Shown here: piece by piece, positions 15,314-42,470 of the stretch
Numbering within the stretch: the first letter of the stretch is position 1
How the letters are laid out: each line of letters starts with the position of its first letter
Origin: Fibrobacteria bacterium
GTDB taxonomy: Bacteria > Fibrobacterota > Fibrobacteria > UBA11236
Assembly (NCBI GenBank): GCA_043766615.1
Contig: JAYUHW010000337.1
Span: forward strand, 1 to 57,646
DNA: 57,646 bases
Reading direction: 5' to 3'
Notes under the pieces: generated by a model
Told to the model about the DNA's origin: nothing
Database searches by the model: none
What the model saw: only the letters and a program-made list of their open reading frames with translations
Made by a program: the position numbers and the translations under genes

Positions 15314-15334
15314 TGGGTCGGAATGGAACATTGC

Positions 15335-17287: not shown

Positions 17288-17291
17288 GCAC

Positions 17292-18191
17292 CTAAACCCG
17301 CATAGCCGAGAGGGCGCGGATGTCTCCGACTTCGTCCGGCCAGGTTTCCACCTCAGTCAAGTCCGGGTTTTTCGCCAATTGAGCCGCCAAGGCCTTACCT
17401 TGGCCGAGTCCCACTTCAAAACACATGTAGGACCCGGATCTTAAAAAGCGTGGCGCATTTTTGAGAAACTTGGTCAAAATGGAAATGCCGAATACTCCGC
17501 CGTTGAAAGCCAGCTGCGGCTCGAAAGCGGAAATCTCCCTTGCCATGGCCGATACCTTTGCCGTGGAAATATAGGGTGGATTGCAGCTCAGTAAATCAAC
17601 CTGCCCCAGAAAATCCGGTGACTCGAAAGGGACGAGAAGATCGCCTTGCCGGAATTCAGTACGGTCCGAAAGGCCCGTGAACTCGCGGTTGCGGTTGGCC
17701 AGATCCACCGCTTCCTGGGAAAGGTCAGCGCCGTAAACGCGCGCCTTGGGTTCATGGTATGCGTAGGCCAGGGCTAGATTACCGCTGCCCGTACACACGT
17801 CCACCACCAGCGCTTGACCGCGGCTTTGCACCAAGGTCTTGAGTTTGGCCAGCGCGGCTAGGCCCACGATTTCCGTCTCACGGCGCGGAATAAGCGCACC
17901 GGGTCCGGCGATGAGCTCCAATCCGAGAAAACTCTGCCGCTCAGTCAAATGCCCAAGCGGTATCCCGGATTTCTTTTTCTCTAATAGTTCGCGAAGCGCT
18001 GCGGCGGCCGGTTCGTTTAAATCATGGAGAGGCGTTTGTCCGGCTTTGACTACGGATACCTGGTTGCCGGAAGCTTTGAGCCATAGGGCCTTGAGCACGG
18101 CATCGACAGTCTCCTCGGGCTTGTCGGGCAAGGGTTGCCAAAAAGCTTGGACTTCGGCCAGTAGGTCCGGATATTGGGAAACGGCTATCAT
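17292..18191 (-). CDS. HemK/PrmC-family SAM-dependent methyltransferase (NPPY class)
   Basis: LIPRRETE, SAM motif VDVCTGSGNLAL, the NPPY tetrapeptide (SCNPPYIS) and FEPQLAFNGG. ATGA overlap with the upstream ligase gene. Confidence 0.75.
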   Translation of the reverse strand: MIAVSQYPDLLAEVQAFWQPLPDKPEETVDAVLKALWLKASGNQVSVVKAGQTPLHDLNEPAAAALRELLEKKKSGIPLGHLTERQSFLGLELIAGPGALIPRRETEIVGLAALAKLKTLVQSRGQALVVDVCTGSGNLALAYAYHEPKARVYGADLSQEAVDLANRNREFTGLSDRTEFRQGDLLVPFESPDFLGQVDLLSCNPPYISTAKVSAMAREISAFEPQLAFNGGVFGISILTKFLKNAPRFLRSGSYMCFEVGLGQGKALAAQLAKNPDLTEVETWPDEVGDIRALSAMRV

Positions 18192-19780
18192 GAAGGTGTC
18201 CCGGTTAGCAGTCCCTTTTTGCGGATTTTTCCGGTAGCCGTTTTCGGTAATTCAGGAAGGAACACCACTTCTTTGGGTACCATGAAATTCTCTAACTTTG
18301 CCAGGCAATGCGCCTTGATTTCCTTTTCTGACAGGGTAACTCCATCGTTCAAGGCAATGTAAGCGCGGATGGCCTCGCCCATGAGTGGGTCCGGAAAACC
18401 AAGCACCGCAGCCTCGCGCACGCCCGGAATTCCATGCAAACAATTCTCCACCTCGATAGGGCTCACCTTTTCGCCGCGCGATTTGATGATGTCGTCGTTG
18501 CGCCCCACAAAATAAAGGCACCCGTCCTCGTCCATCTTGAAAAAATCCTGGCTGCAAAGGATACGCTCCCAAGGCAATCTGCCCGGTTTGAGCATATGCG
18601 CGCTCAGTTCGGGTTGATTCCAGTAGCCTACCATGACATGCGGCCCGCGGATGTATAAGATGCCGGTTTCTCCCGTAGGAACGGGCTTGCCTTCTTCCGA
18701 GAGCAGGAAAACTTCGGTGCCGGGGATGGCGCGGCCCACGGAATCCGGTTTCTGAGAGACAAGCTCCGGCTCCAGGTAACATACGCGTTTACACTCGGTC
18801 AAACCGTACATGCGGAAGACCAGGGCCTTAGGAAAGATCTCCTGCAGTCTGGGAACGATATCGGCAGGTAGCGCTGCGGCCGTATTGGTGATGCGCCTGA
18901 CGGAAGGAAAGGCCAAGGGATGCTTGGCGTGCATGCCAAGCAGGGTCATATACACGGTGGGTACGCCCGGAAAAACCGTCACCTCCTGCTCCTTGAGCCG
19001 ATTCAGAATTTGGGCCGGATAGGTGAAAGAACGCTCCAAGACGAGGGTTGCACCAAGGCGAATGGTCATGAGAAGCTGGTATAACCCGTAGTCAAATGCC
19101 AAGGGCAATAGATTCATGATGCGGTCGGTTTCGTCCAGCCGCAGATACTCTATGAGGCTTCCGGCTGTAAAGGTCATGTTTTGATGCGTCATCATCACTC
19201 CCTTGGGATTGCCAGTGCTTCCAGAGGTGTAGATGAGGGCGGCCAAATCGATAGCTATGGTGGCCGGATTGGGAACTACGGGTTCCGCGCCTGCCAGGGC
19301 GTCGTCGAAAGAGAGGATTTCGAAACCCTCCACCTGGGGCCGATTGCCGGAGCAGAGGATTTGCAGCAAGGAGGGGGCTCGACAGAGCACTTCCGAGAAA
19401 ACTTTGGCCAGATGGCCGTCCGTGATGAGCGCCTTGGGGGTGCAGTCGTTGAGTATGTATTCGAGTTTGTCGGTCTTGGTTTGCGGATTGACGACGATGA
19501 ACACTCCGCCGGCCAGAGAAGTTCCGAAGATGGAGATGAGGCATGGCCAGGTATTGTCCATGTAAATGGCGACGCGATCACCGCGCTCCACCCCGGCTTG
19601 GCGGAGTAAGCCGGATAACCGTTGGGCGGAATCAAGCAGTGCTGCATAGGTGTAGGGAACACCTTCGATTACCGCAGCCTGCTTCTCCGGAGTTCGTGCC
19701 GCAGAAGACAAAAGGCTATCGTGTAGCAATCGCTGGAAAGTATGGCCCATATCCGCTCCTTGAAAATGATGGGAGGGCAT
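18188..19780 (-). CDS. AMP-forming adenylating ligase (acyl-CoA ligase-like, exosortase-system-associated type)
   Basis: ANL-superfamily motifs YTSGSTGNPKGVMMTH, YGLTE and GEILIRG-like GILYIRGPHVMVGYW. C-terminal K in ATGKIRKK. Alternative start MGHTFQRLL at 19750. Confidence 0.9.
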   Translation of the reverse strand: MPSHHFQGADMGHTFQRLLHDSLLSSAARTPEKQAAVIEGVPYTYAALLDSAQRLSGLLRQAGVERGDRVAIYMDNTWPCLISIFGTSLAGGVFIVVNPQTKTDKLEYILNDCTPKALITDGHLAKVFSEVLCRAPSLLQILCSGNRPQVEGFEILSFDDALAGAEPVVPNPATIAIDLAALIYTSGSTGNPKGVMMTHQNMTFTAGSLIEYLRLDETDRIMNLLPLAFDYGLYQLLMTIRLGATLVLERSFTYPAQILNRLKEQEVTVFPGVPTVYMTLLGMHAKHPLAFPSVRRITNTAAALPADIVPRLQEIFPKALVFRMYGLTECKRVCYLEPELVSQKPDSVGRAIPGTEVFLLSEEGKPVPTGETGILYIRGPHVMVGYWNQPELSAHMLKPGRLPWERILCSQDFFKMDEDGCLYFVGRNDDIIKSRGEKVSPIEVENCLHGIPGVREAAVLGFPDPLMGEAIRAYIALNDGVTLSEKEIKAHCLAKLENFMVPKEVVFLPELPKTATGKIRKKGLLTGTPS

Positions 19781-19856
19781 TAAGCCTATATTTTTTAAGT
19801 ATCAGGTGCAAGGATCGGAAGCGATCCGCGCTTGGGTTCACAAGAGAGTCCGCGGA

Positions 19857-21299
19857 CTACATTCGGCTCTGCACCAGAAGCAATCCGGTGGCGGCCTTCT
19901 GCCCTTGAAAAGCCCGGTAGATATAAATGCCGGGCTCAAACCTCTTCAATGCGTTTTCATCCAGGGCTTGACCGGCAGCAACACCGTAAAGTTTGGTTCC
20001 ATTGTTGCGGAACACATCTAACGGAGCCATGCCAATTCGGATTTCCTGAAGCTGGAGTCCGAGTCCGGCGCCGGTACGCGGGAGAATTTTCTGTTTTGGT
20101 TTTGGGCTCGCATTTACCGTTGAGGTCAGCAATTGGGCATGGGTAAGTTTATAGATGGCGCCGGATCCGTGCCCGGCCGCATACAAATTTCCGGCTCCAT
20201 CCGTTCCAAGGGACGAAATGGTTTGGGGGCATTCCCCGATTTGCGTCAATTCATCTTTGATGTACGCTTTGTGCGTGAGGCCCCAGAGGGTGTGGCCTCC
20301 ATAATCGGCAAAAATATAGACGCCGTTGAATCCGGACCCGGCAGCACCATGGAAAACATACCCGCCTATGATACACGCGGATTGGGCACGCCCTAATGCG
20401 GCGACAGGTGGTAGAAAGGAGGACGGCGTACAGGAAGCATTGAAGGCACAAACATCCCCTTCCACGTCGCTCCATCCGTAATTACCACCATTACGTACTA
20501 CGTCGATTTCCTCCCGGCTGGACAAGCCGACATCCCCTACCCAGAGGTCGCCTGTGGCCGCATCGAAGTTGAAGCGAAAGGGATTGCGCAGGCCAAAGGC
20601 GAAAATCTCTTTTTTGACGGCGGGATCGGTATTATTGGCAAATGGATTGTCAGAGGGGATGGAATAACCTTGTCCAGACAGAGGAGCATCGACGTTGAGC
20701 CGCAGGATTTTTCCGAACAGGGAAGTCTTCCTTTGCGGTTCCCGGAAATTTTCCCCGTCGCCTAATCCAAAATAAAGGTATCCGTCAGGGCCGAAGGCCA
20801 AACTGCCGCCCTTATGCCCTTGCGAGTTTGCCTGGTCAATGGTAATGATGCGGCGGGGCGGGTTTCCTGAATCTTTGAGGAAGGTATTGTCCGCGGTCCT
20901 CTCATCCACTGCCGAGGATTCGACACCGGCTGCGTTGGCGGGATTGTAGTGTACATAGTACTTGCCGTTCTGGGCAAATTTCGGGTGGAAGGCCACGCCG
21001 AGAAGTCCCATTTCGTTTAGGCCCCGGCGCACGGACAAGGACACGAAAAGTTTCTTGGTATTGAGTGCGCCTTCCTTTTGCAGGACATAGAGATTGGCCG
21101 TGGGTGTTTCCCTACCTTGCTCAGCCGCAAGGAGAACGCCGGGATGGCCTGGAATCTCGCCCACCCAGATTGGAAGGTTCAGACGATTGGCAACATTGGT
21201 TTCAAAAACTGGAGTACAAGTGACACCAGTGGGAATGGCCGCAGTAGCTATGCCCGTGATGGCAAGAAGTGCCTGGGTAAAACAGAAACTCTTTAGCAT
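19857..21299 (-). CDS. Secreted PQQ-dependent sugar dehydrogenase (glucose/sorbosone dehydrogenase beta-propeller) with a T9SS-type C-terminal domain
   Basis: Signal peptide. LLGVAFHPKFAQNGKYYVHY, HKGGSLAFGPDGYLYFGLGDG, NPFRFNFD...GDLWVGDVG and GGNYGW. The C-terminal ~70 aa end GIYIYRAFQGQKAATGLLLVQ. Confidence 0.8.
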   Translation of the reverse strand: MLKSFCFTQALLAITGIATAAIPTGVTCTPVFETNVANRLNLPIWVGEIPGHPGVLLAAEQGRETPTANLYVLQKEGALNTKKLFVSLSVRRGLNEMGLLGVAFHPKFAQNGKYYVHYNPANAAGVESSAVDERTADNTFLKDSGNPPRRIITIDQANSQGHKGGSLAFGPDGYLYFGLGDGENFREPQRKTSLFGKILRLNVDAPLSGQGYSIPSDNPFANNTDPAVKKEIFAFGLRNPFRFNFDAATGDLWVGDVGLSSREEIDVVRNGGNYGWSDVEGDVCAFNASCTPSSFLPPVAALGRAQSACIIGGYVFHGAAGSGFNGVYIFADYGGHTLWGLTHKAYIKDELTQIGECPQTISSLGTDGAGNLYAAGHGSGAIYKLTHAQLLTSTVNASPKPKQKILPRTGAGLGLQLQEIRIGMAPLDVFRNNGTKLYGVAAGQALDENALKRFEPGIYIYRAFQGQKAATGLLLVQSRM

Positions 21300-21317
21300 G
21301 AAGTATCCTTTAATCCA

Positions 21318-22673
21318 TCAAGGGCTTATCCGCCCCAGTCCGTTGGTCATCACATTTGGGTCTGAATCCAGTTTAGTGCCCGGTTTGGTGCCAAAAGCGA
21401 AAACGGGCGAATGGGTTATATCGCTTCGGCGATTGTTATGCAACTGAGACGCGGCTTTTTTCCTGTGCGTGCCATTTTTGTTTTCCATCAGGATTGGGCT
21501 CCCGGAGTCGAATTCAAAAGCGCCCAAATCCAAAAGTCCATGTACTGCCCGGGGCTTACCTGCACCGAGCGAAAAAAATTCAAAAGTGGGAACCAGGCTG
21601 AATCCTTGCGCACTATCGAAAGCTTTCCCTTTATCGATAGCGGGGGACGTGGACAATATGTGGTAATCGAACGCCGTCCTATTTGCGAACCCGGGGTCGG
21701 CACTTGGCAGGAGCAGGTTGTTCGTGGTATCAGCAGTACCAGTGTACATGGTGCCGTGGCCCACGAAAAGGTTATTTCCAAATTTGGCGTTACGGGTTCC
21801 GGTCGCCACCCGTATGAAATTCCCTCCCGTCATATCATTGACGAAGGTGTTGTTGTAGATGAACAAATCATTTGGTGAGTTGGTAAGGCCCTCGGCCCCG
21901 TAAGAGACCAGCGTGGAATTGTCGCTAAGTGGGCTTTGCTGAAACACATTACCAATAAGAAAGGATGTTCCGCCGTTGGGCAAGTCCACGGAATAGCTGG
22001 CGGTGCCATTCAGTCCGTCAAGAATCCGGTTGTAGAGAAGGTAGTTGGCATTCGCCCGGCTTTTCACTTCATGGCCGATACGTGCTTCATGGCTGTAGCA
22101 AAAGCGTAATGTGAAACTTTTGACGTTGGAGATATAAATGTTGTGGCTTTGTCCATCACCAAATCCATTGCTAGCAAATTCGGAATATTCGATCATTACT
22201 TCGCTGGCAGTCCCGCCCCCGCCCAAAATCCCATCTTCGTTTCCATGAAAATAACAATGGCGGACAGTAAGGTTGTCCCCTTGCTGGCGGATTCCTGCCC
22301 CGTTCTGATCCGGTACCGTGGCTCCGGAAAATTCGATATTTTCGACCACGGTATTTTTACCGGATATGACCCAGATGGCTTTGCCTTCCGCACTTTTGCC
22401 TCCGGCGTCCAGATGGGCAAACTTGGCGGTTCCTTTGAGGACAAGATTATTCTTGGTCCAGCTCGCCACATCACCCTGGTAAAGACCCGGTTCGATCAAA
22501 ACGGTATCACCGTCTTGGACATTGGCCAACACAGCACTTGGTACGCTGTACAATTTTCCTGGTCCAACCGGCAATGTTCGGGCAAAAGCGCAAATGCAAA
22601 AATGGCAGGCAAGCGTCGCGGCCAGACAAGTGATTTTGTACTTCATAGTCCAGCTCCCGATGGGTTCAAACAT
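21318..22673 (-). CDS. Secreted right-handed parallel beta-helix repeat protein (pectate-lyase-like fold)
   Basis: Signal peptide from MKYKITCLAATLAC (alternative start 22646). Beta-helix repeats NIEFSGATVPDQNGAGIRQQGDNLTVRHCYFHGNEDGILGG and SHNIYISN. Confidence 0.7.
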   Translation of the reverse strand: MFEPIGSWTMKYKITCLAATLACHFCICAFARTLPVGPGKLYSVPSAVLANVQDGDTVLIEPGLYQGDVASWTKNNLVLKGTAKFAHLDAGGKSAEGKAIWVISGKNTVVENIEFSGATVPDQNGAGIRQQGDNLTVRHCYFHGNEDGILGGGGTASEVMIEYSEFASNGFGDGQSHNIYISNVKSFTLRFCYSHEARIGHEVKSRANANYLLYNRILDGLNGTASYSVDLPNGGTSFLIGNVFQQSPLSDNSTLVSYGAEGLTNSPNDLFIYNNTFVNDMTGGNFIRVATGTRNAKFGNNLFVGHGTMYTGTADTTNNLLLPSADPGFANRTAFDYHILSTSPAIDKGKAFDSAQGFSLVPTFEFFSLGAGKPRAVHGLLDLGAFEFDSGSPILMENKNGTHRKKAASQLHNNRRSDITHSPVFAFGTKPGTKLDSDPNVMTNGLGRISP

Positions 22674-22733
22674 TATACCTTCGCGAGGGCAGGACTACAA
22701 ATTCTTTTCCACTTTTTTCTAGTTTTCGAATCC

Positions 22734-24698
22734 ATGTGCGGGCTTTTAGGAATAGTGAGCCGACATCCGATCCCGGGAGGCCTGGACACCATCCGAAAAA
22801 TGAACCGAACCCTGCGCCATCGAGGTCCGGACCAAGAAGGTGTTTTCCTCAACGAGGATGGCAACATTTCCCTGGCGCACAACCGATTAAGTATTCTCGA
22901 TTTGTCAGATGCAGGCCGTCAGCCCATGAGTGATGGGGAAAAGCGCTTTACCATTGCTTTCAACGGCGAAATCTACAACCATCACGAAATCCAGGCGGAT
23001 TTGCGTCAACGGGGCCATCCGTTTCGCGGTCGTTCCGACACAGAAGCCCTGCTGTATGCTTACAAGCAGTATGGTTCCGGATGCGTGGATCGCCTGCGGG
23101 GTATGTTTGCCTTTGCCGTGCACGATCAAAATGACGGAAGCGTATTCGTAGCCAGGGACAGGCTGGGCATCAAGCCGCTTTACTATGCCGAACTCGAAGG
23201 CACCTTGATTTTCGCCTCAGAATGCAAAGCTATTTTGGCCTATCCCGGTTTCGACCGAACCATGGATCCGCAAGCCCTGTCGGATTATTTTTCCTTGATG
23301 TATATTCCCTCGCCCAAAACCATTTACCAAAAGATTCGAAAGCTTCCGGCCGGGTACTGGCTCAAAGTAACAAGAGACGGGAATGTCCGCCTGCAAAAAT
23401 ACTGGGACCTAGAGTTTCTGGATGATTCGGAATATGGAAGGGAAAAAGATATTGCCACTGCACGACAGGAGCTTCTCGCAGCCCTGGAAGATGCAGTGAA
23501 GAGCCACATGGAAAGCGATGTTCCCCTGGGAGCATTTTTAAGCGGTGGCGTGGATTCTGCCGCCGTAGTTGCTTTGATGTCCAAGAACTCTACGAAGCCG
23601 GTACTCACCAACACTGTCGGATTCAGCAACAAATCATATGACGAGACACCTCAAGCCAAGGAGACGGCCGATTTTTTTAAGACCCGGCATAAGGCCTTTA
23701 CGGTCAAGCCCGATGCGGTCGGAGTGCTTGAAAAATTGGCTTGGCATTTCGATGAACCTTTCGCGGATTCTTCCATGATCCCCAGCTATTATGTATGCCA
23801 GATGGCAAGGCAATCCGTGACCGTTGCCCTTTCCGGTGATGGTGGGGATGAAAACTTTGCCGGCTACCGGCGATACTTCTACGACCGGTTGGAAAACCGC
23901 GTCCGCAATGTGTTGCCAGCATTTTTGCGTACGCCCGTATTTGGAGCCCTTGGGGCCGTCTATCCAAAGGCTGATTGGCTACCGCAGCCTCTAAGGGCCA
24001 AAACCTTGCTTCGCAATCTTTCCTTCCCGCCCATGCAGGGTTATTTCACGAGCATGTCCCATTTCCTCCCCAAGATGAAGGCGTCGCTCTTTTCTCGCGA
24101 CCTCGTTTCGCGGCTGGGCGGATATGATTCGTTATCGGTATTCGCCGATCATTGGAACCGGTGTCAAAGTCAGGATCCCCTTTCCCGCGTCCAATATTTG
24201 GATTTCAAAACCTATTTGGTGGATGACATCCTCACCAAAATGGATCGTGCCAGTATGGCGGTATCCCTGGAGGTACGGGTTCCGATTCTGGATCATAAAT
24301 TAGTCGAGATGGCCGCTCGCATACCCTCCGCTTGGAAACTGCACGGCAAAGTTTCCAAATCCATTTTCAAAGACAGTTTACGGAGCCTATTGCCGGAATC
24401 CGTATTCACTCGGCCCAAATCGGGTTTTTCCATTCCCATAAAGGAATGGTTCCGCACCGATCTGAGGGAGTATTCCCGCGATACCTTGCTGGCAGCCAAT
24501 GGCATTTGCACTTTGGGCCTTTTTCAGAAACCCTATGTGGAAAAGCTACTCCGGGAACATCAGTCCAGTTTACGGGATCACAGCTTTCCGCTTTTTGCCT
24601 TGCTGTCCTTCGCCTTATGGCATAAACAATTCGGGTCTGAATCTTCCCAAAAATCAGAGCCGCCTGGAGCTCCAGGCTCATATGGGAGAGGGCTATGA
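22734..24698 (+). CDS. asnB: Asparagine synthase family amidotransferase, paralog 2
   Basis: Start MCGLLGIVS at 22734 (Cys2 requirement). The 591 nt of upstream open frame is antisense to the beta-helix gene. PP-loop AFLSGGVDSAAVVALM. Confidence 0.9.
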   Translation: MCGLLGIVSRHPIPGGLDTIRKMNRTLRHRGPDQEGVFLNEDGNISLAHNRLSILDLSDAGRQPMSDGEKRFTIAFNGEIYNHHEIQADLRQRGHPFRGRSDTEALLYAYKQYGSGCVDRLRGMFAFAVHDQNDGSVFVARDRLGIKPLYYAELEGTLIFASECKAILAYPGFDRTMDPQALSDYFSLMYIPSPKTIYQKIRKLPAGYWLKVTRDGNVRLQKYWDLEFLDDSEYGREKDIATARQELLAALEDAVKSHMESDVPLGAFLSGGVDSAAVVALMSKNSTKPVLTNTVGFSNKSYDETPQAKETADFFKTRHKAFTVKPDAVGVLEKLAWHFDEPFADSSMIPSYYVCQMARQSVTVALSGDGGDENFAGYRRYFYDRLENRVRNVLPAFLRTPVFGALGAVYPKADWLPQPLRAKTLLRNLSFPPMQGYFTSMSHFLPKMKASLFSRDLVSRLGGYDSLSVFADHWNRCQSQDPLSRVQYLDFKTYLVDDILTKMDRASMAVSLEVRVPILDHKLVEMAARIPSAWKLHGKVSKSIFKDSLRSLLPESVFTRPKSGFSIPIKEWFRTDLREYSRDTLLAANGICTLGLFQKPYVEKLLREHQSSLRDHSFPLFALLSFALWHKQFGSESSQKSEPPGAPGSYGRGL

Positions 24699-26883: not shown

Positions 26884-26893
26884 GGTCAACGCA

Positions 26894-29409: not shown

Positions 29410-29460
29410 TTTTGATTCCTATTTCGGCTAGAATCTGTGCATCCCCAGATTGGAAACCAC

Positions 29461-33658: not shown

Positions 33659-33681
33659 AAGCGGCGGTTGGAACTTGAACT

Positions 33682-35574
33682 TTAGGCTTTCCCTAGAAAA
33701 CGTCGGTACCAGAATGTGAAAAGCACCAGCGAGAATAGAAATTGTCCCAGCTTTTTGTCCTCGGGCCCCAGGCGATCAATGGCAGACACAAGTTTGGATT
33801 CATCAAAAAGATAGCGCGATTCAGAGTCAAGGAGGGCATTGCGCATAAAGGACTTGCCAGTGGGAGTGGACAGGATTCCGACGAAGTTGGTGTGGAAGCC
33901 CTGCTTTTTCCTTTCCAATATTTGTTGCGGAATTTTCCCCCGGAAGACATCTTTAAGTAACGCCTTTACTTCCCAACCGGACTTCCCTAGAGGCCGCATT
34001 TTGTATTTCATGGGTAGCTTGGAACAGAATTCCACCACACGGTAGTCCAAAAAGGGGACGCGCAGTTCGAGGCTGGTAGCCATACTCATGCGGTCGGCCT
34101 TGGTCAGTAGATTGTCGGGAAGCCATACCTTGGAATCCATGTATAATAGATGCGAGAACATATCCCGAGCCTTGGATTCTGCATGGAATTCGCCTGTAAA
34201 AACCGAATTGCTCAATCCAAAATTTTTTGCGAATTCCGCTTTGAAGAATCCCCGTCTAAAGGCAGCGTCACCAGTTGTACCAAAATAGTCTTTCGATAGA
34301 CAGGCGAAGTCTTGCATGGACTTGCGATAAAGGGCCCGATATCTGGCCAAGCTGGCAGATTTTGGTAGCAATCCTCCCGCCAAGGCGGGTAGAAAAGGCG
34401 GTAAGGAATTGAATCTACGTTGGCGATCCCATGATTCCAAATCACTCGAGTAATTGTAACCGGCGAACAATTCGTCGCTACCCTCGCCGGATAAGGCCAC
34501 GGTGACATGTTCCCGAGCAAGTTTGGAAACATGATAGAGAAGGATCGAGGCTGGATCGGCCACAAGGTCGTCCACCTGCCAAGCCATGGTTTCCATTGAT
34601 GACATGAACCCAGAAGGGTCGAGTACCATTTCGTGATGGTTGGTTCCATAGTGAAGAGCTGCCAAGTCGGCAAATTTGCGCTCGTCCCACTGGCCGCCTC
34701 CGGTAGAGGCGATGGAAAAAGTTTGAATGCCTGTGCCCCGCTGTTCATGCATCAAGTGGGTGATGATGGTAGAATCCAGGCCACCACTTAGAAAGACTCC
34801 CAGCGGTACGTCCGCTATCATGCGCAGACGAACGGAATCGCTAAGCAGCGTGTACAACTCGCGCCCGGCTTCGACGGGATCGATAGCCATTTCCTGGCCG
34901 GTAGGAATGTCCCAGTAGCGGTGCAGCTTGAGGTCACCGTCTTTCCATAAGCCAAAGTAACCGGGGGGTAGTTTGCGCACTCCACGCAAGAGGGTAAGCG
35001 GGCTGGCTACATAACGGTTGGCCAGGTAACAATCAAAAGCCGTATGATCGAGTTCGGGAGATCGGCCCAGCAGAGGCCGCAAACCCTTGAGCTCCGAAGC
35101 AAAGAGCAATCGTCCGTCTTCCAGGCAATAATACAGGGGTTTTTTTCCTAGCCGGTCCCGGGCCAAAAATACTTCTCTTTGCTGCGTGTCCAATATGGCA
35201 AAGGCGAACATGCCATTGAGTTTGTCCAGGCAGGCCGGTCCAAACTCCCGGTAGGCATAAAGCAATACTTCCGTATCCGAATGGGTTGAAAACCGGATAC
35301 CTCGGGCTTCCAACTCCAGTTTCACTACGGCAAAATTATAGATCTCCCCGTTGAAGATAATGCAGTAGCGACCGTCTGCCGTGTACATGGGCTGACTTCC
35401 TCCCGCGAGGTCGATAATGGATAGGCGCAAGTGGGCAAATATGGCGTATGGAAATTCGGCCAAACCAGATTCATCCGGACCACGGTGATGCTGCAATTCC
35501 ATGGCCTCCCGAATTTTCGGTTCCATGTTCCTGGGTAGCTCGGTTTTATCGATGACTCCGACTATTCCACACAT
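33682..35574 (-). CDS. asnB: Asparagine synthase family amidotransferase, paralog 3
   Basis: MCGIVGVID N-terminus and PP-loop VFLSGGLDSTIITHLM. 630 aa. Confidence 0.9.
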   Translation of the reverse strand: MCGIVGVIDKTELPRNMEPKIREAMELQHHRGPDESGLAEFPYAIFAHLRLSIIDLAGGSQPMYTADGRYCIIFNGEIYNFAVVKLELEARGIRFSTHSDTEVLLYAYREFGPACLDKLNGMFAFAILDTQQREVFLARDRLGKKPLYYCLEDGRLLFASELKGLRPLLGRSPELDHTAFDCYLANRYVASPLTLLRGVRKLPPGYFGLWKDGDLKLHRYWDIPTGQEMAIDPVEAGRELYTLLSDSVRLRMIADVPLGVFLSGGLDSTIITHLMHEQRGTGIQTFSIASTGGGQWDERKFADLAALHYGTNHHEMVLDPSGFMSSMETMAWQVDDLVADPASILLYHVSKLAREHVTVALSGEGSDELFAGYNYSSDLESWDRQRRFNSLPPFLPALAGGLLPKSASLARYRALYRKSMQDFACLSKDYFGTTGDAAFRRGFFKAEFAKNFGLSNSVFTGEFHAESKARDMFSHLLYMDSKVWLPDNLLTKADRMSMATSLELRVPFLDYRVVEFCSKLPMKYKMRPLGKSGWEVKALLKDVFRGKIPQQILERKKQGFHTNFVGILSTPTGKSFMRNALLDSESRYLFDESKLVSAIDRLGPEDKKLGQFLFSLVLFTFWYRRFLGKA

Positions 35575-35610
35575 AACCTGAACCCCATTTTCATTACTCC
35601 CGAGTGATGT

Positions 35611-37014
35611 TCAGAATTGGAAATAGATAAAGGCATGTTCGCTCTTAGGCACAAGTAAAAAAAGAATCACTATCAAGGTCGCATAAACGAAACCGCGGGC
35701 AAAATCGGGCAATCGAAAGAAAACACGATTCAATTTCTGGTGAAAAAGGCCGTACATCTGATCCCCAAAGAATAGGCTGAAAGCCAGAAAGGTAACACCT
35801 CCAAGACTCGATGACTGCCCCGGAGACAGGGAGAAAATACCGCGGAGAAAAACCAGGGCATCCGAAAAAGATGCGCTCCTGAAAAGGATCCAGCCCAGTA
35901 AGACTGCCCCTTGGGTGGTAAACCATCCCAGCCACTTATTTCCGAATCCAGATTCAGCCGTTATAAAAATACTCAGATGGCGTTCGATCAATTGGACAGC
36001 CCCATGCCATGCGCCCCAAATAATGAATGTCCAGTTTGCACCATGCCAAAGCCCGCTGGTGACGAACGTGATCATTAGGTTTCGTTGGGTTTTCAATTCC
36101 CCGTGCCGGGAGCCGCCCAGAGGTATGAAAACATAATCCCGAAACCAGGAGGATAGTGAAATATGCCATCTCCGCCAGAACTCTTGAAAGTTGGTGGCCA
36201 GATAAGGATAGTTGAAATTGAGCGGAAGCTTGAATCCAAGCAGGGCACCAGACCCTCTTGCCATGTCGCTGTATCCAGAGAAGTCGCAATAGATCTGCAC
36301 CGAATAAGCGAGGGCAGCGAGCAGCAGCGCAGACCAGGCGTGGGTCGAGGGTGATTGGAACACCGGGTCCACCAGATCCATTGCGAGGGTGTCGGCGATA
36401 AAGGCCTTCTTAAGGTACCCTCGCAAAAAAAGGAGGGAGCCGTGCGCGGCCTGGTCCAAGGAGAAGGTTCGAGGTTTCTGGATTTGTGGTAGAAAATGGG
36501 TAGCTCGCACAATGGGGCCGGCCACCAACTGCGGAAAGCAGGATACAAAGGCTGCAAATTCCACGAAATTCCGGGAAGGCTTGAGTTTTCCAAAGTAAAC
36601 GTCCAGAGTGTAGCTCATGGACTGAAAAGTATAGAAGGAAATACCCACCGGAAGAAGAATGTGCAGCGTATGCCATTGCAGCTGGATTCCAAACCTGGCA
36701 AACAAATCGGAGAAGGAATGGGCGAAGAAATCAAAATATTTGAAGAAGGCTAGTACTCCGAGATTGCTCAACATACTAATGGTGATCAGGGATTTCCGCG
36801 CTGCATGGGTCGCTGCCTTATCGATGGCCAAGGCCACTGCGAAATCAACCAGGGCGGTGAAAATCAAGAGACCCAATAGGATGGGATTCCAGCTGGCATA
36901 GAAAAACAAACTGGCCAGGAGCAGGAAAAGATTCTGGGATTTATGGCCTAGCATCCAGTAGATGCCCAGCACCGGTAGAAAGAAAAAGAAATATTCGATG
37001 CTAACGAAATTCAT
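35611..37014 (-). CDS. MBOAT-family membrane O-acyltransferase (AlgI/DltB-like)
   Basis: FYTFQSMSYTLDVY and WRRWHISLSSWFRDYVFIPLGGSR with the invariant His. More than 8 TM segments. Confidence 0.9.
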   Translation of the reverse strand: MNFVSIEYFFFFLPVLGIYWMLGHKSQNLFLLLASLFFYASWNPILLGLLIFTALVDFAVALAIDKAATHAARKSLITISMLSNLGVLAFFKYFDFFAHSFSDLFARFGIQLQWHTLHILLPVGISFYTFQSMSYTLDVYFGKLKPSRNFVEFAAFVSCFPQLVAGPIVRATHFLPQIQKPRTFSLDQAAHGSLLFLRGYLKKAFIADTLAMDLVDPVFQSPSTHAWSALLLAALAYSVQIYCDFSGYSDMARGSGALLGFKLPLNFNYPYLATNFQEFWRRWHISLSSWFRDYVFIPLGGSRHGELKTQRNLMITFVTSGLWHGANWTFIIWGAWHGAVQLIERHLSIFITAESGFGNKWLGWFTTQGAVLLGWILFRSASFSDALVFLRGIFSLSPGQSSSLGGVTFLAFSLFFGDQMYGLFHQKLNRVFFRLPDFARGFVYATLIVILFLLVPKSEHAFIYFQF

Positions 37015-37955
37015 GGGGAAAAAGAGTTGGCCAGGATACCTTGGTAAAGCAGCGCTTGGCTGATCACGTGGCGGCCATGGGGGTTGAGGTGGATGTGATC
37101 CAGGGTGAAGTCCGAATCTTTAAGACCCACCTCCGCGGACTTCAAAACCTGAAATTCGCACTTTTCTCGGGCGCATTCAAATTGAAGATAATTCTGGAAC
37201 CGGGCAACCTGGATGGGGTCAAGGCCGTCTTCAACACTTGGGGCAAAAGGCATGACAATAATTTTCACGCTAACAGACCTGGAGCGGAGAAAAGTAACCA
37301 GGGCATGCAGGGACTGTTGTTCCCGAGGGTTAAGTTTAGCCAGTAATTTATTGAGATGTTGGGTTAAAGCCTTTTCTACAGAAGGTGCGTCGACTGACCG
37401 ACCGGTACTCAACATGACAAGCTTGGAAAGGGCGTCCCTATGATTTCGATCCCGGGCGAGGGAGGAATACCGCATCCAGGAAAAGAATCGATTACGCAGA
37501 AAATTCTTTTCCGGCTCCCCGATACCATCCGTCAAACCAAGCACGAAATCCCGCCATCCCCAAAGTATCGAAGGAGTATTTTCGTTTTCAGTCGCTTCGA
37601 AGTCCAAAGGCTGAAGGACTAGCACCATTTTTTCTGGCCAGGTTCCAAGTCGGCGGAAATGCCTTTCCAACCCACCGCGGGCAAATTCCAGAAAAGTGGA
37701 AATATGGCCTCCGGAGACGGAGAGAATGCGGAGCTGATTTGCGGTTGCATCGCAGACAAGGCTGTCCAGATCCCGCGCCCGGCTGGAGCCCAAGAAAAGT
37801 GCATCAGGGGAGGAATGCTCCTTTAGGAAGCTTACGATAAGGTCGTGATCTCGAACTGAAGAGGGCAGCGGAGAAGCAACGAACCAACCGATGCCTAAAT
37901 CGAAGACCGCCAGAAAAAAAAGACACCAGCTTATCACTTTGAATTTTTTGACCAT
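37011..37955 (-). CDS. Membrane-anchored SGNH/DltD-like putative acyl-transfer partner of the MBOAT
   Basis: N-terminal single TM (VISWCLFFLAVFDLGIGWFV), block-I-like ALFLGSSRARD and block-V-like TLDHIHLNPHG (DxxH). ATGA overlap with the MBOAT gene. Confidence 0.5.
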   Translation of the reverse strand: MVKKFKVISWCLFFLAVFDLGIGWFVASPLPSSVRDHDLIVSFLKEHSSPDALFLGSSRARDLDSLVCDATANQLRILSVSGGHISTFLEFARGGLERHFRRLGTWPEKMVLVLQPLDFEATENENTPSILWGWRDFVLGLTDGIGEPEKNFLRNRFFSWMRYSSLARDRNHRDALSKLVMLSTGRSVDAPSVEKALTQHLNKLLAKLNPREQQSLHALVTFLRSRSVSVKIIVMPFAPSVEDGLDPIQVARFQNYLQFECAREKCEFQVLKSAEVGLKDSDFTLDHIHLNPHGRHVISQALLYQGILANSFSP

Positions 37956-38191: not shown

Positions 38192-39307
38192 ATGCCTAAG
38201 GTTATGTTGGTCTGCGGGGCCCGCCCCAACTTCATGAAAATCGCTCCGATCATGGATGCGATCCATAAATCGGGTAAGCTGAAACCCGTACTGGTGCATA
38301 CGGGTCAACATTACGATCACAAGATGTCCCACTCCTTTTTTGATCTTCTTGAAATTCCCAAACCCGATATCGATTTGGGTGTCGGTTCCGGCAGCCATGC
38401 CGAGCAAACGGGAAAAATCATGATTGAATTCGAAAAGGTTTGCCTGGAACACAAACCGGATTTGGTGGTTGTAGTCGGCGATGTCAACTCTACCATGGCT
38501 TGCGCCATCGTAGCCAAAAAATTATGGATACCAGTCGCTCACGTGGAAGCGGGTTTGCGTTCTTTCGACATGAAAATGCCAGAAGAGATTAACCGAATGG
38601 TGACGGATTCCATAAGCGATCTTTTCTTCACTACCGATCCTGAAGGCAACAGAAACCTCAAGGGCATGGGCATCAAAGCAACGCAGATTCACTTTGCCGG
38701 CAACGTGATGATCGATACCTTGATGCGCAATCGTCCCAAGGCAGCCAAGAATCCGATTCTCGAATCGCTGGGGATTTCATCCCGTGAATACGGCGTACTC
38801 ACCATGCACCGCCCGTCCAATGTAGATGACAAAGCAGTACTGCTGGGCATGCTGGAGGCGTTTCGGACCATTCAGGAGAAAATCAAACTGGTGTTCGTGG
38901 CTCATCCCAGGACCATGAAAATGATTACCCAATTTGGATTGCTGCCCATGCTGGAGGCCATGCCCAACTTGCTGGTGCGAGAGCCGATGGACTACATGCA
39001 AATGCTCCGGCTCACCGAAAACGCCGCTTTGGTGATTACCGATTCCGGCGGTCTACAGGAGGAAACTACCGTGCTGGGGGTTCCTTGCATTACCATCCGG
39101 GAGAATACGGAGCGGCCGGTGACAGTTACCGAAGGCAGCAATGAAGTGGTTGGAACGCGCACTGAAAAAATAATCGATGCCGCACACCGGGCTCTTTCCG
39201 GCCGCTGGAAAAAAGGTGGTATTCCGGAAGGTTGGGATGGCAAAGCGAGTGAGAGGATAGTCCGGATCATCGAAGACTTTTTCCTCTTGGAACAAAAAGC
39301 GAAATAG
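38192..39307 (+). CDS. wecB: UDP-N-acetylglucosamine 2-epimerase (non-hydrolysing)
   Basis: MPKVMLVCGARPNFMKIAPIMDAI...HTGQHYD, HVEAGLRSFD and DSGGLQEE motifs. Confidence 0.9.
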   Translation: MPKVMLVCGARPNFMKIAPIMDAIHKSGKLKPVLVHTGQHYDHKMSHSFFDLLEIPKPDIDLGVGSGSHAEQTGKIMIEFEKVCLEHKPDLVVVVGDVNSTMACAIVAKKLWIPVAHVEAGLRSFDMKMPEEINRMVTDSISDLFFTTDPEGNRNLKGMGIKATQIHFAGNVMIDTLMRNRPKAAKNPILESLGISSREYGVLTMHRPSNVDDKAVLLGMLEAFRTIQEKIKLVFVAHPRTMKMITQFGLLPMLEAMPNLLVREPMDYMQMLRLTENAALVITDSGGLQEETTVLGVPCITIRENTERPVTVTEGSNEVVGTRTEKIIDAAHRALSGRWKKGGIPEGWDGKASERIVRIIEDFFLLEQKAK

Positions 39308-39316
39308 GAGATAGAA

Positions 39317-40306
39317 ATGGCCGGCAATAAATTTTCCCGCGAAGTACTGAATCTGGACTGCGCCAAAGAGGCGGAAGCCATAGCGGGAAGAATGCGCGAT
39401 TTGCTGACAGGGTTCAAGCGTCGGGGATTCATAATCGCTCTTTCCGGCGGCATCGACAGTTCTGTGACCGCTGCCTTGTGCGTCAAGGCCGTGGGGGCCG
39501 ATAAGGTTTTTGGCCTCCATATGCCCGAACAGGATTCCGCCGCCGAAACCGTTAGCCTAAGCCAATTGGTTTCCACCCACTTTAAGATTGAATCCATTGT
39601 TGAAGACCTATCTCCCATCCTTGAGGCGGTGGGGTGCTATTCACGTCGGGATGCGGCAATCCGGACGGTGGTGCCAGGGTATGGAGTCGGATGGAAATCC
39701 AAAATCGTACTGCCCAATATTTTGGAAAACAAAGGCTTCAACTTTTACTCCGTGGTGGCTCAATCGCCAAGTGGGGAAACCGTCAAGGTACGTCTGCCTT
39801 TGGAGGCCTACCTGGGAGTGGTGGCCGCCACAAATTTCAAACAACGCATCAGGAAGATGCTGGAATACTACCATGCGGATCGGCTTAATTATGCCACGAC
39901 CGGGACGCCGAACCGGCTTGAATACGACCAGGGGTTTTTCGTAAAACTGGGAGACGGCAATGCCGATGTGAAACCCATTGCCCACCTTTATAAGACGCAG
40001 GTCTATCAGTTGGCCGAGTATCTGGAGGTCCCGGAAGTCATCCGTCGCCGGCCACCCACCACAGACACTTATTCTTTGGAGCAGGGTCAGGACGAGTTTT
40101 ACTTCTCTCTGCCCTATGCCCGCATGGACCTTTGCCTTTATGCCAAGAACCACGGCATCACCGCCCAAGAAGCCTCAGAGGCACTGGACCTCAGTCCTGA
40201 ACAGGTGGAAAGGGCCTATAAGGATATCGACACCAAACGAGCAACCACGCGTTTTCTGCATCTTAAGCCGCAATTGGCTTTTCCCGTTCCGGAAATATCC
40301 GTCTGA
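39317..40306 (+). CDS. nadE: NAD synthetase-like PP-loop ATP pyrophosphatase (no glutaminase domain)
   Basis: ALSGGIDSSVTAALCV PP-loop and ATTGTPNRLEYDQGFFVKLGDGNADVKPIAHLYKTQVYQLA, which is typical of the NadE family. It lies between wecB and a glycosyltransferase. Confidence 0.75.
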   Translation: MAGNKFSREVLNLDCAKEAEAIAGRMRDLLTGFKRRGFIIALSGGIDSSVTAALCVKAVGADKVFGLHMPEQDSAAETVSLSQLVSTHFKIESIVEDLSPILEAVGCYSRRDAAIRTVVPGYGVGWKSKIVLPNILENKGFNFYSVVAQSPSGETVKVRLPLEAYLGVVAATNFKQRIRKMLEYYHADRLNYATTGTPNRLEYDQGFFVKLGDGNADVKPIAHLYKTQVYQLAEYLEVPEVIRRRPPTTDTYSLEQGQDEFYFSLPYARMDLCLYAKNHGITAQEASEALDLSPEQVERAYKDIDTKRATTRFLHLKPQLAFPVPEISV

Positions 40307-41454
40307 GAAAAATCCGGGTTCTCCATACCGTTAGCCGGGTTTATCCGTATGCTGGCATGGAGCGTAAGGTAATCCAATTGCTCAACCATTTGGATCGAAA
40401 CCGTTTCGAACTTCACCTTATGAGTCTGGAAGGATTTTATGGAAATCCTTTGGACTACCTCAATGCCGACATTAAGCTCCATTCCCTACAGAAAAGAGCA
40501 GGCGTGCATCCGGTCCTGGCCTTGCAAATGGCCAAAATCTTTCGGCGGGAACGAATCGACATTGTGCATTCCCACAATTGGCCGACCTTGTTCCATTCGG
40601 TGGTGGCCGCGGAGCTGGCCAGGGTGCCGAGTAAGGTACACGGGGAGCATGGCCAGGAGTCCAAAGAAGTTCATCACACTCTAAAAGCGTTGTGGGCCCG
40701 GAAAATCCTGTATGGGCGCGTGGGTCAGGTGGTGGCGGTGGCCAAGGATCTCAAGGCGTTACTGACTAGGGAATTCGGTGTATCTCCAGAAAAGATCAAA
40801 GTCATTGAGAATGGTGTGGACATAGGCAAGTTCGCCAACCTGCCTAGCGTGGAAGAAATTCGAAAAAATTTTAACCTTCCCAGTGACGGGCCCCTTATTG
40901 GTTCTATTGCCCATCTTCGACCCGTCAAGGATGTACCGACCTTGATTCGCGCCTTCGTGCGGGTTTTGAAAAAACATCCGAATGCCAGTCTCGTAGTCGC
41001 GGGCGCTCCGGAGGAACCGGGCGACCCGGTGCATGCGCAAGTGGAACGGTTGATTCAGGAAGCTGACGCCGGCTCCCGGATTTTTTTCATCGGGCAAACC
41101 GAAAACGTACCCGCCCTGCTTTCAGCCCTTTCCATTTATGTGAACAGTTCGCTGACAGAAGGTATGTCGAATACGATTTTGGAGGCCATGGCCGCTGGCC
41201 TGCCTGTCATTGCCTCGGACGTGGGTGGAAATCCAGAATTGGTGGTTCCAGACCAAACCGGTTACCTATTTCCGGCACAAAATGACCAAACCCTGGCAGC
41301 CAGGATTCTGGAATTGCTGGAAAACCCCGAGCAAGGCCATACTATGGGAAAAAAGGGCCGAGCCCGCGTCGAGGAAAGACATGGCTTCAAAAGAATGTTG
41401 ACGGAAAATGCCGCTATGTATGCCGAACTGGCATCCGCGCATACCGATGGATAG
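40303..41454 (+). CDS. Glycosyltransferase family 4 (PEP-CTERM/EpsH1-associated type); start probably non-canonical
   Basis: The first canonical start, ATG 40357, lies inside the conserved GT4 N-terminus. The in-frame upstream sequence reads (L)RKIRVLHTVSRVYPYAGMERKVIQLLNHLD. The open frame begins at 40267. CTG 40303 overlaps the nadE-like TGA. C-terminal SSLTEGMSNTILEAMAAGLPVIASDVGGNPE. Confidence 0.75.
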   Translation: MRKIRVLHTVSRVYPYAGMERKVIQLLNHLDRNRFELHLMSLEGFYGNPLDYLNADIKLHSLQKRAGVHPVLALQMAKIFRRERIDIVHSHNWPTLFHSVVAAELARVPSKVHGEHGQESKEVHHTLKALWARKILYGRVGQVVAVAKDLKALLTREFGVSPEKIKVIENGVDIGKFANLPSVEEIRKNFNLPSDGPLIGSIAHLRPVKDVPTLIRAFVRVLKKHPNASLVVAGAPEEPGDPVHAQVERLIQEADAGSRIFFIGQTENVPALLSALSIYVNSSLTEGMSNTILEAMAAGLPVIASDVGGNPELVVPDQTGYLFPAQNDQTLAARILELLENPEQGHTMGKKGRARVEERHGFKRMLTENAAMYAELASAHTDG

Positions 41455-41530
41455 TTATATTTTTTTCTCTTAGGCCAGAAAAATTCAATCACGCTTTGTA
41501 AATGCAAGGCCTTTCATCCAGGATGGAAAC

Positions 41531-41797
41531 ATGTCAGCTTCGGAAACGGAAATAAAATTACAAGTCAAGGAATTCATCCTCAGCAATTTCTTTCCCGGGA
41601 AAAACTCGGAAGGATTAGGGGATACGACATCCTTTCTGGACGCGGGGATCATCGATTCAACGGGTGTATTGGAATTAGTCGGCTTCATCGAGGAAAAATT
41701 TGGTTTTTCCGTGGACGACAGTGAAATGCTGCCGGAAAATCTCGATTCCTTGAACAGCCTGGCCGTTTATATCGCCAGTAAATCAGGCAAAACCTAG
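41531..41797 (+). CDS. Acyl/aminoacyl carrier protein (phosphopantetheine attachment site), DltC-like signature
   Basis: 88 aa. FLDAGIIDSTGVLELVGFIEEKFGFSV with the attachment Ser in IDS. Confidence 0.85.
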   Translation: MSASETEIKLQVKEFILSNFFPGKNSEGLGDTTSFLDAGIIDSTGVLELVGFIEEKFGFSVDDSEMLPENLDSLNSLAVYIASKSGKT

Positions 41798-41828
41798 GTG
41801 TAAAGGCACCTAGGCATTTGAGCATACA

Positions 41829-42470
41829 ATGATGATTGGACTGTTTCGGGCATTACGTGAAAGGATCTCCCGGTCCTTGGAAATGAATAAGTACAATCGG
41901 TTCACTATAGCCGAATACTTCCGCAAACAAGGTGCACAAGTTGGCGAGGGATGCAGCTTTATAGTCAAGTCCCTGGGAGACGAGCCTTGGTTGGTCAAGA
42001 TAGGCAATCATGTGGCTGTGGCTGACGGCGTCACCTTTGGGACCCATGATGGCGGATGCTGGGTACTCCGCCAGGAAAATCCAAACCTGCAAGCCTATGG
42101 CCCTATCATCATAGAAGACAACTGCGTTATCGGCCAAAACGCATTGATCTTTCTGAATGTTCGCATCGGAGCGGATTCCATCGTGGGAGCCGGATCCGTC
42201 GTCATCGCAGATGTGCCGCCGGGACGCATTGTAATGGGCAATCCTGCCAGGGTAATCGGTTCGGTAGAGAAGTACAAGGAAAAATGCCTGGTTCGATGGG
42301 CGCAACAATGTCCTTCAGATGTGGTCATTGAAGAGGGTCGCACCTGGTGGACGAGCCGCCACTATCCTGAAAACCGCATCAAGCTGCGCCGGCATTTGAC
42401 CAAGCTGTTTTGGGAGGATGGATACCGGGAAAAAATCGAAGGCACTCCAAAGCCGGAGGGTCCAGCATGA
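41829..42470 (+). CDS. Left-handed beta-helix (hexapeptide repeat) acyltransferase
   Basis: Hexapeptide run IIIEDNCVIGQNALIFLNVRIGADSIVGAGSVVIADVPPGRIVMGNPARVI. Confidence 0.8.
   Translation: MMIGLFRALRERISRSLEMNKYNRFTIAEYFRKQGAQVGEGCSFIVKSLGDEPWLVKIGNHVAVADGVTFGTHDGGCWVLRQENPNLQAYGPIIIEDNCVIGQNALIFLNVRIGADSIVGAGSVVIADVPPGRIVMGNPARVIGSVEKYKEKCLVRWAQQCPSDVVIEEGRTWWTSRHYPENRIKLRRHLTKLFWEDGYREKIEGTPKPEGPA

Follow-up and report, generated by a model that had tools for sequence, protein, structure and literature searches.

Ligase, carrier and acyltransferase genes in a Fibrobacteria exosortase island may belong to two independent polysaccharide-tailoring units and not to one Dlt-like set

We analyzed a 57,646-nucleotide stretch of DNA from a Fibrobacteria bacterium (assembly GCA_043766615.1, contig JAYUHW010000337.1; the window). 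An initial annotation of its interval 17292-42470, made from the sequence alone, had proposed that an adenylating ligase, a DltC-like carrier protein, a membrane-bound O-acyltransferase (MBOAT) as well as a DltD-like anchored protein form a dispersed Dlt-like set that may esterify an exosortase-linked exopolysaccharide (EPS). All four open reading frames (ORFs) were found at the coordinates and on the strands given there, spread over 24 kb and both strands, and their surroundings were indeed an exosortase/PEP-CTERM polysaccharide island. The ligase and carrier genes, however, co-varied across genomes with AsnB-like and NadE-like genes and not with the MBOAT and SGNH genes, which weakens the claim of one Dlt-like set. 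The genes on which the argument rests are the following:

37011..37955, minus strand: single-pass membrane-anchored protein with a predicted SGNH fold, 314 aa (block I G56-S57-S58; block V D286-x-x-H289)
35611..37014, minus strand: MBOAT of the PatA/AlgI type, 467 aa (PF03062, 104 bits; catalytic His324 in WHG; C-terminal F462-I-Y464-F-Q-F467)
33682..35574, minus strand: AsnB-like amidotransferase, paralogue 3, on the strand of the MBOAT gene and 36 nt downstream of it (TIGR01536, 473 bits)
15323..17287, plus strand: AsnB-like glutamine amidotransferase, paralogue 1 (TIGR01536, 509 bits)
17292..18191, minus strand: HemK-family N-methyltransferase with an NPPY motif (TIGR00536, 160 bits, cut-off 115.5; ATGA overlap with the ligase gene)
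18188..19780, minus strand: stand-alone adenylating ligase, 530 aa (AMP-binding, 296 bits, and AMP-binding_C)
39317..40306, plus strand: NadE-like N-type ATP pyrophosphatase, PRK00876 subfamily (NF002048, 506 bits, cut-off 313)
41531..41797, plus strand: stand-alone carrier protein, 88 aa (PP-binding, 26.6 bits, cut-off 20.8; phosphopantetheine Ser43)
41829..42470, plus strand: left-handed beta-helix (hexapeptide) acyltransferase, 31 nt downstream of the carrier gene (NeuD/PglB/VioB family, 65 bits, below the cut-off of 161; Hexapep)

Two samples of loci were compared. Scanning GTDB species genomes with the NadE-like protein gave 532 relatives, of which the best 80 loci were analyzed with 10 kb of flank on either side (the module loci), and a metagenome scan supplied the 80 MBOATs closest to that of the window, at 40-47% identity. 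The phylogenetic co-occurrence predicted for the four genes was not seen. Of the 80 module loci, 3 had an MBOAT gene within 10 kb and none had one as close as 1.5 kb to the module, the SGNH family was found in 0/80, and an acyl carrier protein (ACP) gene was likewise missing from all 80 loci of the closest MBOAT relatives. The NadE-like gene was instead the most conserved marker of an ACP module: it occurred together with an ACP in 67/80 loci, any ligase in 65/80, an AsnB-like gene in 61/80, a DegT gene in 14/80 and a HemK-like gene in 7/80. It was adjacent to the ACP gene in 40 loci, and the ligase and ACP genes adjoined each other in 36.

Three genes that travel with the ligase and ACP genes had thus been overlooked, namely the AsnB-like (15323-17287), HemK-like (17292-18191) and NadE-like (39317-40306) genes. 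In the Fibrobacteria metagenome-assembled genomes (MAGs) L013, L018 and L076, the orthologues formed one contiguous block, AsnB> <HemK <ligase ACP> NadE>, with no MBOAT within 10 kb. Identities between the window proteins and those of L018 were 77% for the ligase, 76% for AsnB, 68% for the NadE-like protein, 65% for the HemK-like protein and 47% for the ACP. The window holds a split copy of this block, with AsnB paralogue 1, the HemK-like gene and the ligase at 15323-19780 and the NadE-like and ACP genes at 39317-41797; the halves are about 19.5 kb apart, and the MBOAT operon is among the glycosyltransferase and other genes between them. We conclude that the AsnB-like, HemK-like, ligase, NadE-like and ACP genes constitute one module.

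The island encodes three AsnB-like glutamine amidotransferase paralogues (15323-17287, 22143-24698 and 33682-35574) with a mutual identity of 31-35%. Of 59 module AsnB proteins, 57 had their best match in the window in paralogue 1; by this comparison paralogue 1 is the orthologue of the module AsnB. Paralogue 3, the gene behind the MBOAT, was 33-35% identical to the other two and never the best match, and the same comparison indicates that it is not the module orthologue. The ORF at 22143-24698 is listed from a GTG at 22143, and its real start is probably near 22734 because the AsnB domain begins only at residue 198. The HemK-like protein carries NPPY at residue 204, a motif present in all seven homologues. 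These were confined to loci with a ligase of the window type and directly flanked it in 6/7, an ACP gene intervening in L087.

Relatives of the NadE-like protein came from Fibrobacterota, Verrucomicrobiota, Desulfobacterota, Planctomycetota, Acidobacteriota and some Actinomycetota, and the module (L008-L087) often had exosortase, FemAB-like, DegT or hexapeptide-transferase genes next to it. Among flanking genes, homologues of the hexapeptide transferase were the commonest (15/80 loci, no more than 1.5 kb away), and the window enzyme at 41829..42470 is a candidate cytoplasmic acceptor-side enzyme. Searches of Pfam and NCBIfam gave no match for module-associated proteins of 256, 343 and 348 aa, and no description of an AsnB/NadE/ACP/ligase(/HemK) module was found in a literature search. 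The module is widespread and uncharacterized, and it resembles VinN/VinL-type carrier-bound amino-acid tailoring placed in polysaccharide loci. On the strand of the ligase block and directly downstream of it, 19857-22673 encodes a protein resembling glucose/sorbosone dehydrogenases (PF07995, 129 bits) and another of 451 aa whose sole family match is a sub-threshold NosD-like NCBIfam model (20 bits, E 1.6e-4); neither gene was present in the contiguous modules of the relatives.

The invariant histidine of the MBOAT was borne out, WHG His324 aligning with the catalytic His of DltB. DltB scored 97 bits against the window protein in PDB, and TIGR04091 reached 157 bits, under its cut-off of 375. 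FxYxxF is an acyl-shuttle motif that is fused to MBOATs of the PatA/AlgI/WssH type and is supplied in the Dlt system by the microprotein DltX; MBOATs of the DltB type are without the two C-terminal helices that bear it, and non-Dlt MBOAT systems have no carrier protein because acyl-CoA is used (PMC12148441). Since the window MBOAT ends in a fused FIYFQF, it belongs to the PatA/AlgI type and not to the DltB/DltX type. Excluding the cassettes described below, FxYxxF was found in 76/81 MBOATs compared. Most of the 80 closest MBOATs had an adjacent protein of about 300 aa with a G[DS]S...DxxH pattern, and twelve of these neighbors matched the hidden Markov model (HMM) of the window SGNH family weakly (scores 11-30).

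The gene at 37011-37955, whose stop overlaps the MBOAT start as ATGA, encodes the LGSSR and LDHIH motifs reported earlier. Its product had no Pfam or NCBIfam match, and a word-indexed homology search returned one relative only. When 1.8 billion representative proteins were scanned exhaustively with HMMER, nine matched at E<=1e-3, the query included, and a profile search gathered 73 family members, some with sub-threshold GDSL matches; against PDB sequences the family profile gave a marginal match only, to CgnD (E 0.009). Residues G56, S57, S58, G83, D286 and H289 were invariant in a 50-sequence alignment of the family. An AlphaFold model built on the 50-homologue alignment had a pLDDT of 90.1 and a transmembrane (TM) helix at residues 2-26; a single-sequence model (pLDDT 41) was discarded. 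Every significant Foldseek match of the model in PDB was an SGNH/GDSL enzyme, including DltD (6o93, 3bma) and PatB (7trr, 8tlb). The model thereby confirmed the predicted SGNH fold and membrane anchor, but not membership in the DltD family. The DltD matches (E ~6e-4, TM-score 0.41-0.45) were no better than those of generic SGNH esterases, and Pfam DltD did not match at E<=1. We predict that this protein is the periplasmic acyl acceptor or transferase partner of the MBOAT; together the two look like a divergent representative of the known polysaccharide O-acylation pairs. The sole close SGNH relative, 68% identical, lies on a 4.2-kb contig (L001:1-4195) with the gene order of the window, in which family 4 glycosyltransferase (GT4), NadE-like and WecB genes point one way and the SGNH and MBOAT genes diverge from them.

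More distant SGNH relatives were found in compact cassettes, in which an anchored SGNH protein is followed by an MBOAT with a C-terminal FxYxxF, a carrier of 85-90 aa and a ligase of 652-725 aa. This arrangement was present in 5/5 informative independent loci of SGNH relatives, from metagenomes and MAGs:

L002:10001-14876 (L002/L003): cassette
L004:10001-14847: cassette
L089:8001-12757: cassette
L171:3188-7881: cassette
L172:8001-13102: cassette

The cassette SGNH proteins were 20-27% identical to that of the window, which scored 223 bits against the family HMM and matched P0003 at E 2.6e-9. The cassette ligase is of the acetoacetate-CoA-ligase family (TIGR01217, 624 bits, cut-off 521) and 22% identical to the window ligase, and the cassette carrier is weakly DltC-like (41 bits, under 68). 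Because the cassette MBOATs also end in FxYxxF, carrier-linked MBOATs of the PatA type appear, from these sequences, to exist. A literature search found no description of MBOAT-ACP-acetoacetyl-CoA-synthetase cassettes.

The window MBOAT was 36-40% identical to those of the cassettes, which were monophyletic to its exclusion in 200/200 bootstraps. The neighbor-joining tree did not settle where the window MBOAT belongs (strict sister to the cassettes in 3/200 bootstraps), and we therefore relied on cassette monophyly and on signature positions. It carries 7 of 26 cassette-specific invariant residues and 18 of 23 conserved in ACP-less MBOATs, and it keeps R292, the PLGG motif and D250, which are changed in the cassettes. 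Only one other juxtaposition of both units was found among the 80 module loci. On the minus strand of L053 (Planctomycetaceae MAG, 3243-5906), the gene of a TM-anchored protein of 402 aa with GTSR...DSGH lies 3 nt ahead of an MBOAT gene whose product ends in FVYFQW, and this SGNH-like/MBOAT pair is divergent from AsnB, ACP, window-type ligase and NadE genes at 6221-10978.

The AMP-forming ligase was recovered as described. Of the four outcomes named as refuting the initial annotation, three (a FAS-type carrier, a fatty-acyl ligase, no SGNH fold at 37011-37955) were not obtained. The top solved-structure match of the ligase was VinN (3wvn, 268 bits against PDB sequences), followed by LgrA adenylation domains, and an amino-acid-adenylation domain model matched at 260 bits. 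Its FDYGLY and TECKR motifs aligned without a loop gap to VinN D230/F231 and K330/R331, pocket residues that together with S299 read D/Y/T/K/R in the window ligase. VinN uses such residues to recognize 3-methyl-Asp and Asp as a beta-amino acid (PMC11253843). The window ligase shares with VinN an Asp that would contact the amino group, bulk at position 231, an S299 equivalent (T), the K330/R331 pair that binds an acidic substrate, and a beta13-beta14 loop that is one residue shorter and equal in length to that of VinN. The best NCBIfam match was TIGR03098, yet under its cut-off (447 versus 592), and DltA was absent from the 25 best NCBIfam and 60 best PDB matches, so that the ligase is not DltA-like. 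On this sequence evidence it is an amino-acid-type adenylating enzyme and not a fatty-acyl ligase, and it is the predicted loader of the carrier protein.

Two types of ligase were noted in the module loci, type A in 49 and type B, the window type, in 17. Type A enzymes are without the Asp235-equivalent residue and read YGxTE-A[SA][AP]R; type B enzymes have [SA]FDYG, and 11 of 22 full-length sequences share TECKR with VinN. L005 (8227-9807 and 10728-12302) and L071 each hold both types, which suggests two different substrates.

The 88-aa carrier at 41531-41797, the sole match to ACP models in the window, holds the Ser-region string FLDAGIIDSTGVLELVGFIEEKFGFSV quoted in the initial annotation, with the phosphopantetheine Ser at residue 43. 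The DltC pattern read into this string was not supported by profiles, as no DltC model (NF003464, TIGR01688) matched at E<=1e-3. Stand-alone peptidyl carrier proteins were the best PDB matches (42 bits), followed by PltL and PigG; DltC scored 21 bits (E 2e-3) and the ACPs of fatty acid synthase (FAS) lower still, with no FAS clustering. By sequence, then, the carrier appears nearer to stand-alone peptidyl carrier proteins than to AcpP and is not specifically DltC-like. Its best NCBIfam match was an ornithine-lipid ACP, and an OlsHI identity was dropped (60.6 bits, under 130; no GH3-like OlsH in the window). Carrier homologues 47-65% identical adjoined a ligase and a NadE-like or PP-loop gene. 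Three loci with close homologues (55-65% identity) had an AMP-ligase next door and no MBOAT nearby, with a NadE-like gene beside two of them and a PP-loop (WbuX-like) gene in the third (L007); the window NadE-like protein is 65% identical to that of L005. A WbuX-like N-acetyl-sugar amidotransferase (PP-loop; TIGR03573, 96 bits, under 203) was also seen alongside the ACP-ligase pair in L006 (11001-11891) and L083. In L007 (6985-8004) it seems to stand in for the NadE-like gene, a hint that the constant feature is an ATP-pyrophosphatase step of the PP-loop kind.

The island itself contains further genes for polysaccharide synthesis and export:

49219..50719, minus strand: exosortase and separate EpsI gene (TIGR02602, 152 bits, cut-off 105; EpsI, 51 bits, cut-off 43)
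47038..48273, plus strand: DegT-family sugar aminotransferase (PF01041, 116 bits)
38192..39307, plus strand: WecB-type UDP-GlcNAc 2-epimerase, divergent from the SGNH-MBOAT operon (TIGR00236, 330 bits, cut-off 210)
40357..41454, plus strand: GT4 glycosyltransferase between the NadE-like and ACP genes (Glycos_transf_1, 137 bits; TIGR03088, 251 bits, under 409)

The exosortase scored under the XrtA cut-off (156 versus 208). Also encoded are a PEP-CTERM protein, a FemAB-like TIGR03019 protein (314 bits, cut-off 260), a TIGR04063 glycosyltransferase (508 bits, cut-off 442) and other GT4 enzymes, a Wzx-like flippase, an O-antigen-ligase-like protein, a chain-length/kinase protein and an export protein. 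The DegT-family enzyme is a possible source of an amino sugar for N-acylation. A 926-aa protein at 29437-32217, with PcRGLX-like (rhamnogalacturonan-lyase-like) domains and a FlgD immunoglobulin-like domain, may be an EPS-processing lyase. Family scans of the window ORFs found no condensation, thioesterase or N-acyl amino acid synthase gene, and no pyridoxal phosphate (PLP) decarboxylase.

On balance, and by a little more than an even chance, we take the interval to hold two independent polysaccharide-tailoring units. Gene content, synteny, fold and pocket similarity are as described above; from them we infer the following substrates, donors and acceptors. The first unit would be the operon 37955->33682 with its PatA/AlgI-type MBOAT-SGNH O-acyltransferase pair. 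A short acyl group, most likely acetyl from acyl-CoA, would pass through the MBOAT tunnel onto Tyr464 of the C-terminal FIYFQF; the anchored periplasmic SGNH protein would then take it on its block-I Ser (S57/S58) and transfer it to exported EPS, with no carrier protein required. The second unit would be the conserved cytoplasmic module, split here, of AsnB-like, HemK-like, ligase, NadE-like and ACP genes. Its ligase would adenylate an Asp-like amino acid in the beta-amino-acid mode for thioesterification on carrier Ser43, the two ATP-dependent amidotransferases (AsnB-like and NadE-like) may amidate the free carboxylate(s), and the NPPY methyltransferase may N-methylate the product. The aminoacyl group would finally be moved to a sugar precursor in the cytoplasm, the likeliest agent being the hexapeptide acyltransferase acting on a DegT-made amino sugar.

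Several points weigh against this scheme. The detectable SGNH homologues, one close relative aside, lie in SGNH-MBOAT-ACP-ligase cassettes (5/5 informative loci), the window pair has the same SGNH->MBOAT order, and it could descend from a carrier-dependent ancestor and use the island ACP in trans. L053 also sets an SGNH-like/MBOAT pair divergently beside AsnB, ACP, ligase and NadE genes, and the acyl donor of the window MBOAT is not readable from its sequence. The hexapeptide transferase flanks the module in 19% of loci and so is no universal acceptor enzyme, and the chemistry given to the AsnB-like, NadE-like and HemK-like proteins is predicted only. The cassette relatives, the shared gene order and L053 speak for a Dlt-like pathway, in which the loaded carrier docks on the cytoplasmic face of the MBOAT, the aminoacyl group travels via Tyr464 and the SGNH protein to EPS, and the AsnB-like, NadE-like and HemK-like enzymes tailor the group on the carrier. 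Such a pathway would also fit an amino-acid-type ligase, a peptidyl-carrier-like protein that is the single ACP of the window and is 26-32% identical to the cassette carriers, and the apparent existence of carrier-linked PatA-type MBOATs. It is nevertheless hard to reconcile with the separate occurrence of the two gene sets (3/80 and 0/80 in module loci, 0/80 around the closest MBOATs), with the contiguous Fibrobacteria module that has no MBOAT in its flanks, and with genes that stand 4.5-22 kb apart in different operons. Moreover, the window MBOAT falls outside the cassette clade and misses most signature residues, the cassette ligase is of another family, and the carrier matches no DltC profile. 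We consider this pathway unlikely, and we are equally doubtful of its most specific form, in which a carrier bearing an amidated, N-methylated Asp-derived group feeds a PatA-type MBOAT in trans for periplasmic EPS aminoacylation in a diderm.

It is also conceivable, although quite unlikely, that the product of the module is a small molecule, free or bound to a lipid (for instance a modified amino acid, an N-acyl amino acid or an exosortase-associated signal), and that the MBOAT-SGNH pair acetylates EPS independently. The four-gene core recurs without a fixed transferase partner, the hexapeptide transferase included (15/80), and the module is also found outside obvious EPS loci, as in L006, beside ABC-transporter and pyruvate:ferredoxin oxidoreductase genes, and in actinomycete matches such as L070 and L079. 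Most loci, however, embed it among glycosyltransferase, DegT, WecB, FemAB-like and exosortase genes, and no gene for condensation, thioesterase or N-acyl amino acid synthase functions was present in the window scans. We regard as highly improbable that the ligase is a short- or medium-chain acyl-CoA/ACP ligase whose carrier gives a fatty or hydroxy-acyl group for LpxA-like N-acylation of an amino sugar. The NCBIfam matches of the ligase after TIGR03098 are fatty-acid-CoA ligase subfamilies, the best NCBIfam match of the carrier is the ornithine-lipid ACP, and the type A ligases of most module loci are without the Asp235 equivalent; but the window ligase has this residue in its FD motif together with the VinN K330/R331 pair, and its best structural matches are adenylation enzymes of the nonribosomal peptide synthetase type, in line with the 260-bit amino-acid-adenylation match.

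With two independent units as the favored reading, the specific Dlt-like claim is weakened and a sharper two-unit picture takes its place. What the ligase and ACP genes of exosortase/PEP-CTERM loci do has been a long-standing question since these systems were defined. These genes are now placed in a conserved AsnB-like/NadE-like/ACP/ligase (+/- HemK-like) module whose marker has 532 GTDB relatives, and the VinN-like pocket offers a concrete substrate hypothesis, an Asp-type amino acid in the beta-amino-acid mode. Setting the module apart from the MBOAT-SGNH pair predicts two substituents instead of one. If an MBOAT fed in trans by the carrier were true after all, it would amount to a Dlt-like pathway in a diderm bacterium, and the carrier-linked FxYxxF MBOATs that the cassettes appear to encode would run counter to the present picture, in which Dlt alone relies on a carrier protein.

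Compared with the Dlt system (DltABCD(X), D-alanylation of teichoic acids), the island likewise has an adenylating ligase, a small carrier, an MBOAT and an anchored SGNH protein, with DltD structures among the Foldseek matches of the latter. It differs in that its genes lie scattered in separate operons and show no co-variation across genomes, its MBOAT has a fused shuttle motif whereas DltB uses DltX, its carrier matches no DltC profile, its ligase is VinN-like and not DltA-like, and its host setting is a diderm exosortase/EPS system. As far as sequence can tell, neither a DltC-type carrier nor a DltB-type MBOAT nor an operon or co-occurring arrangement, the traits that define Dlt, was found. 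The ligase stands closer to VinN/VinL (with the decarboxylase VinO) of vicenistatin biosynthesis, where a stand-alone adenylation enzyme loads a stand-alone ACP with 3-methylaspartate as a beta-amino acid. D230, K330 and R331 are identical, F231 to Y and S299 to T are conservative changes, the shortened loop has the same length, and in both cases a stand-alone carrier is the partner. The window has no polyketide synthase or decarboxylase; its ligase is accompanied by two amidotransferases (AsnB-like and NadE-like) and an NPPY methyltransferase in a polysaccharide island. In canonical XrtA loci, a TIGR03098 ligase is accompanied by a PLP decarboxylase, a pairing that would parallel VinN/VinO. 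The window ligase has TIGR03098, the exosortase-A-associated ligase, as its best NCBIfam match and also lies in an exosortase/PEP-CTERM island; the sub-cut-off score, the exosortase that is not XrtA by cut-off, the missing TIGR03099 PLP decarboxylase and the HemK-like methyltransferase adjoining it instead set it apart.

The compact cassettes, which may be a second carrier-protein-dependent MBOAT-SGNH system besides Dlt, share with the window the SGNH sequence family, the SGNH->MBOAT order and an MBOAT with FxYxxF. In the window, no ACP or acetoacetate-CoA-ligase-like gene is adjacent, AsnB-like paralogue 3 follows the MBOAT instead, and the MBOAT lies outside the monophyletic cassette clade. 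From the PatA/PatB, AlgI/AlgJ(X) and WssH/WssI pairs the window differs by an SGNH protein without a Pfam or NCBIfam match and with a large inserted helical region (about residues 120-225), by the SGNH gene preceding the MBOAT gene, and by the AsnB-like gene that follows in the same operon. It resembles them in an MBOAT with a catalytic His and a fused C-terminal FxYxxF, in a coupled, anchored periplasmic partner with a predicted SGNH fold and Ser...DxxH, in an operon without a carrier protein, and in its place within a polysaccharide locus.

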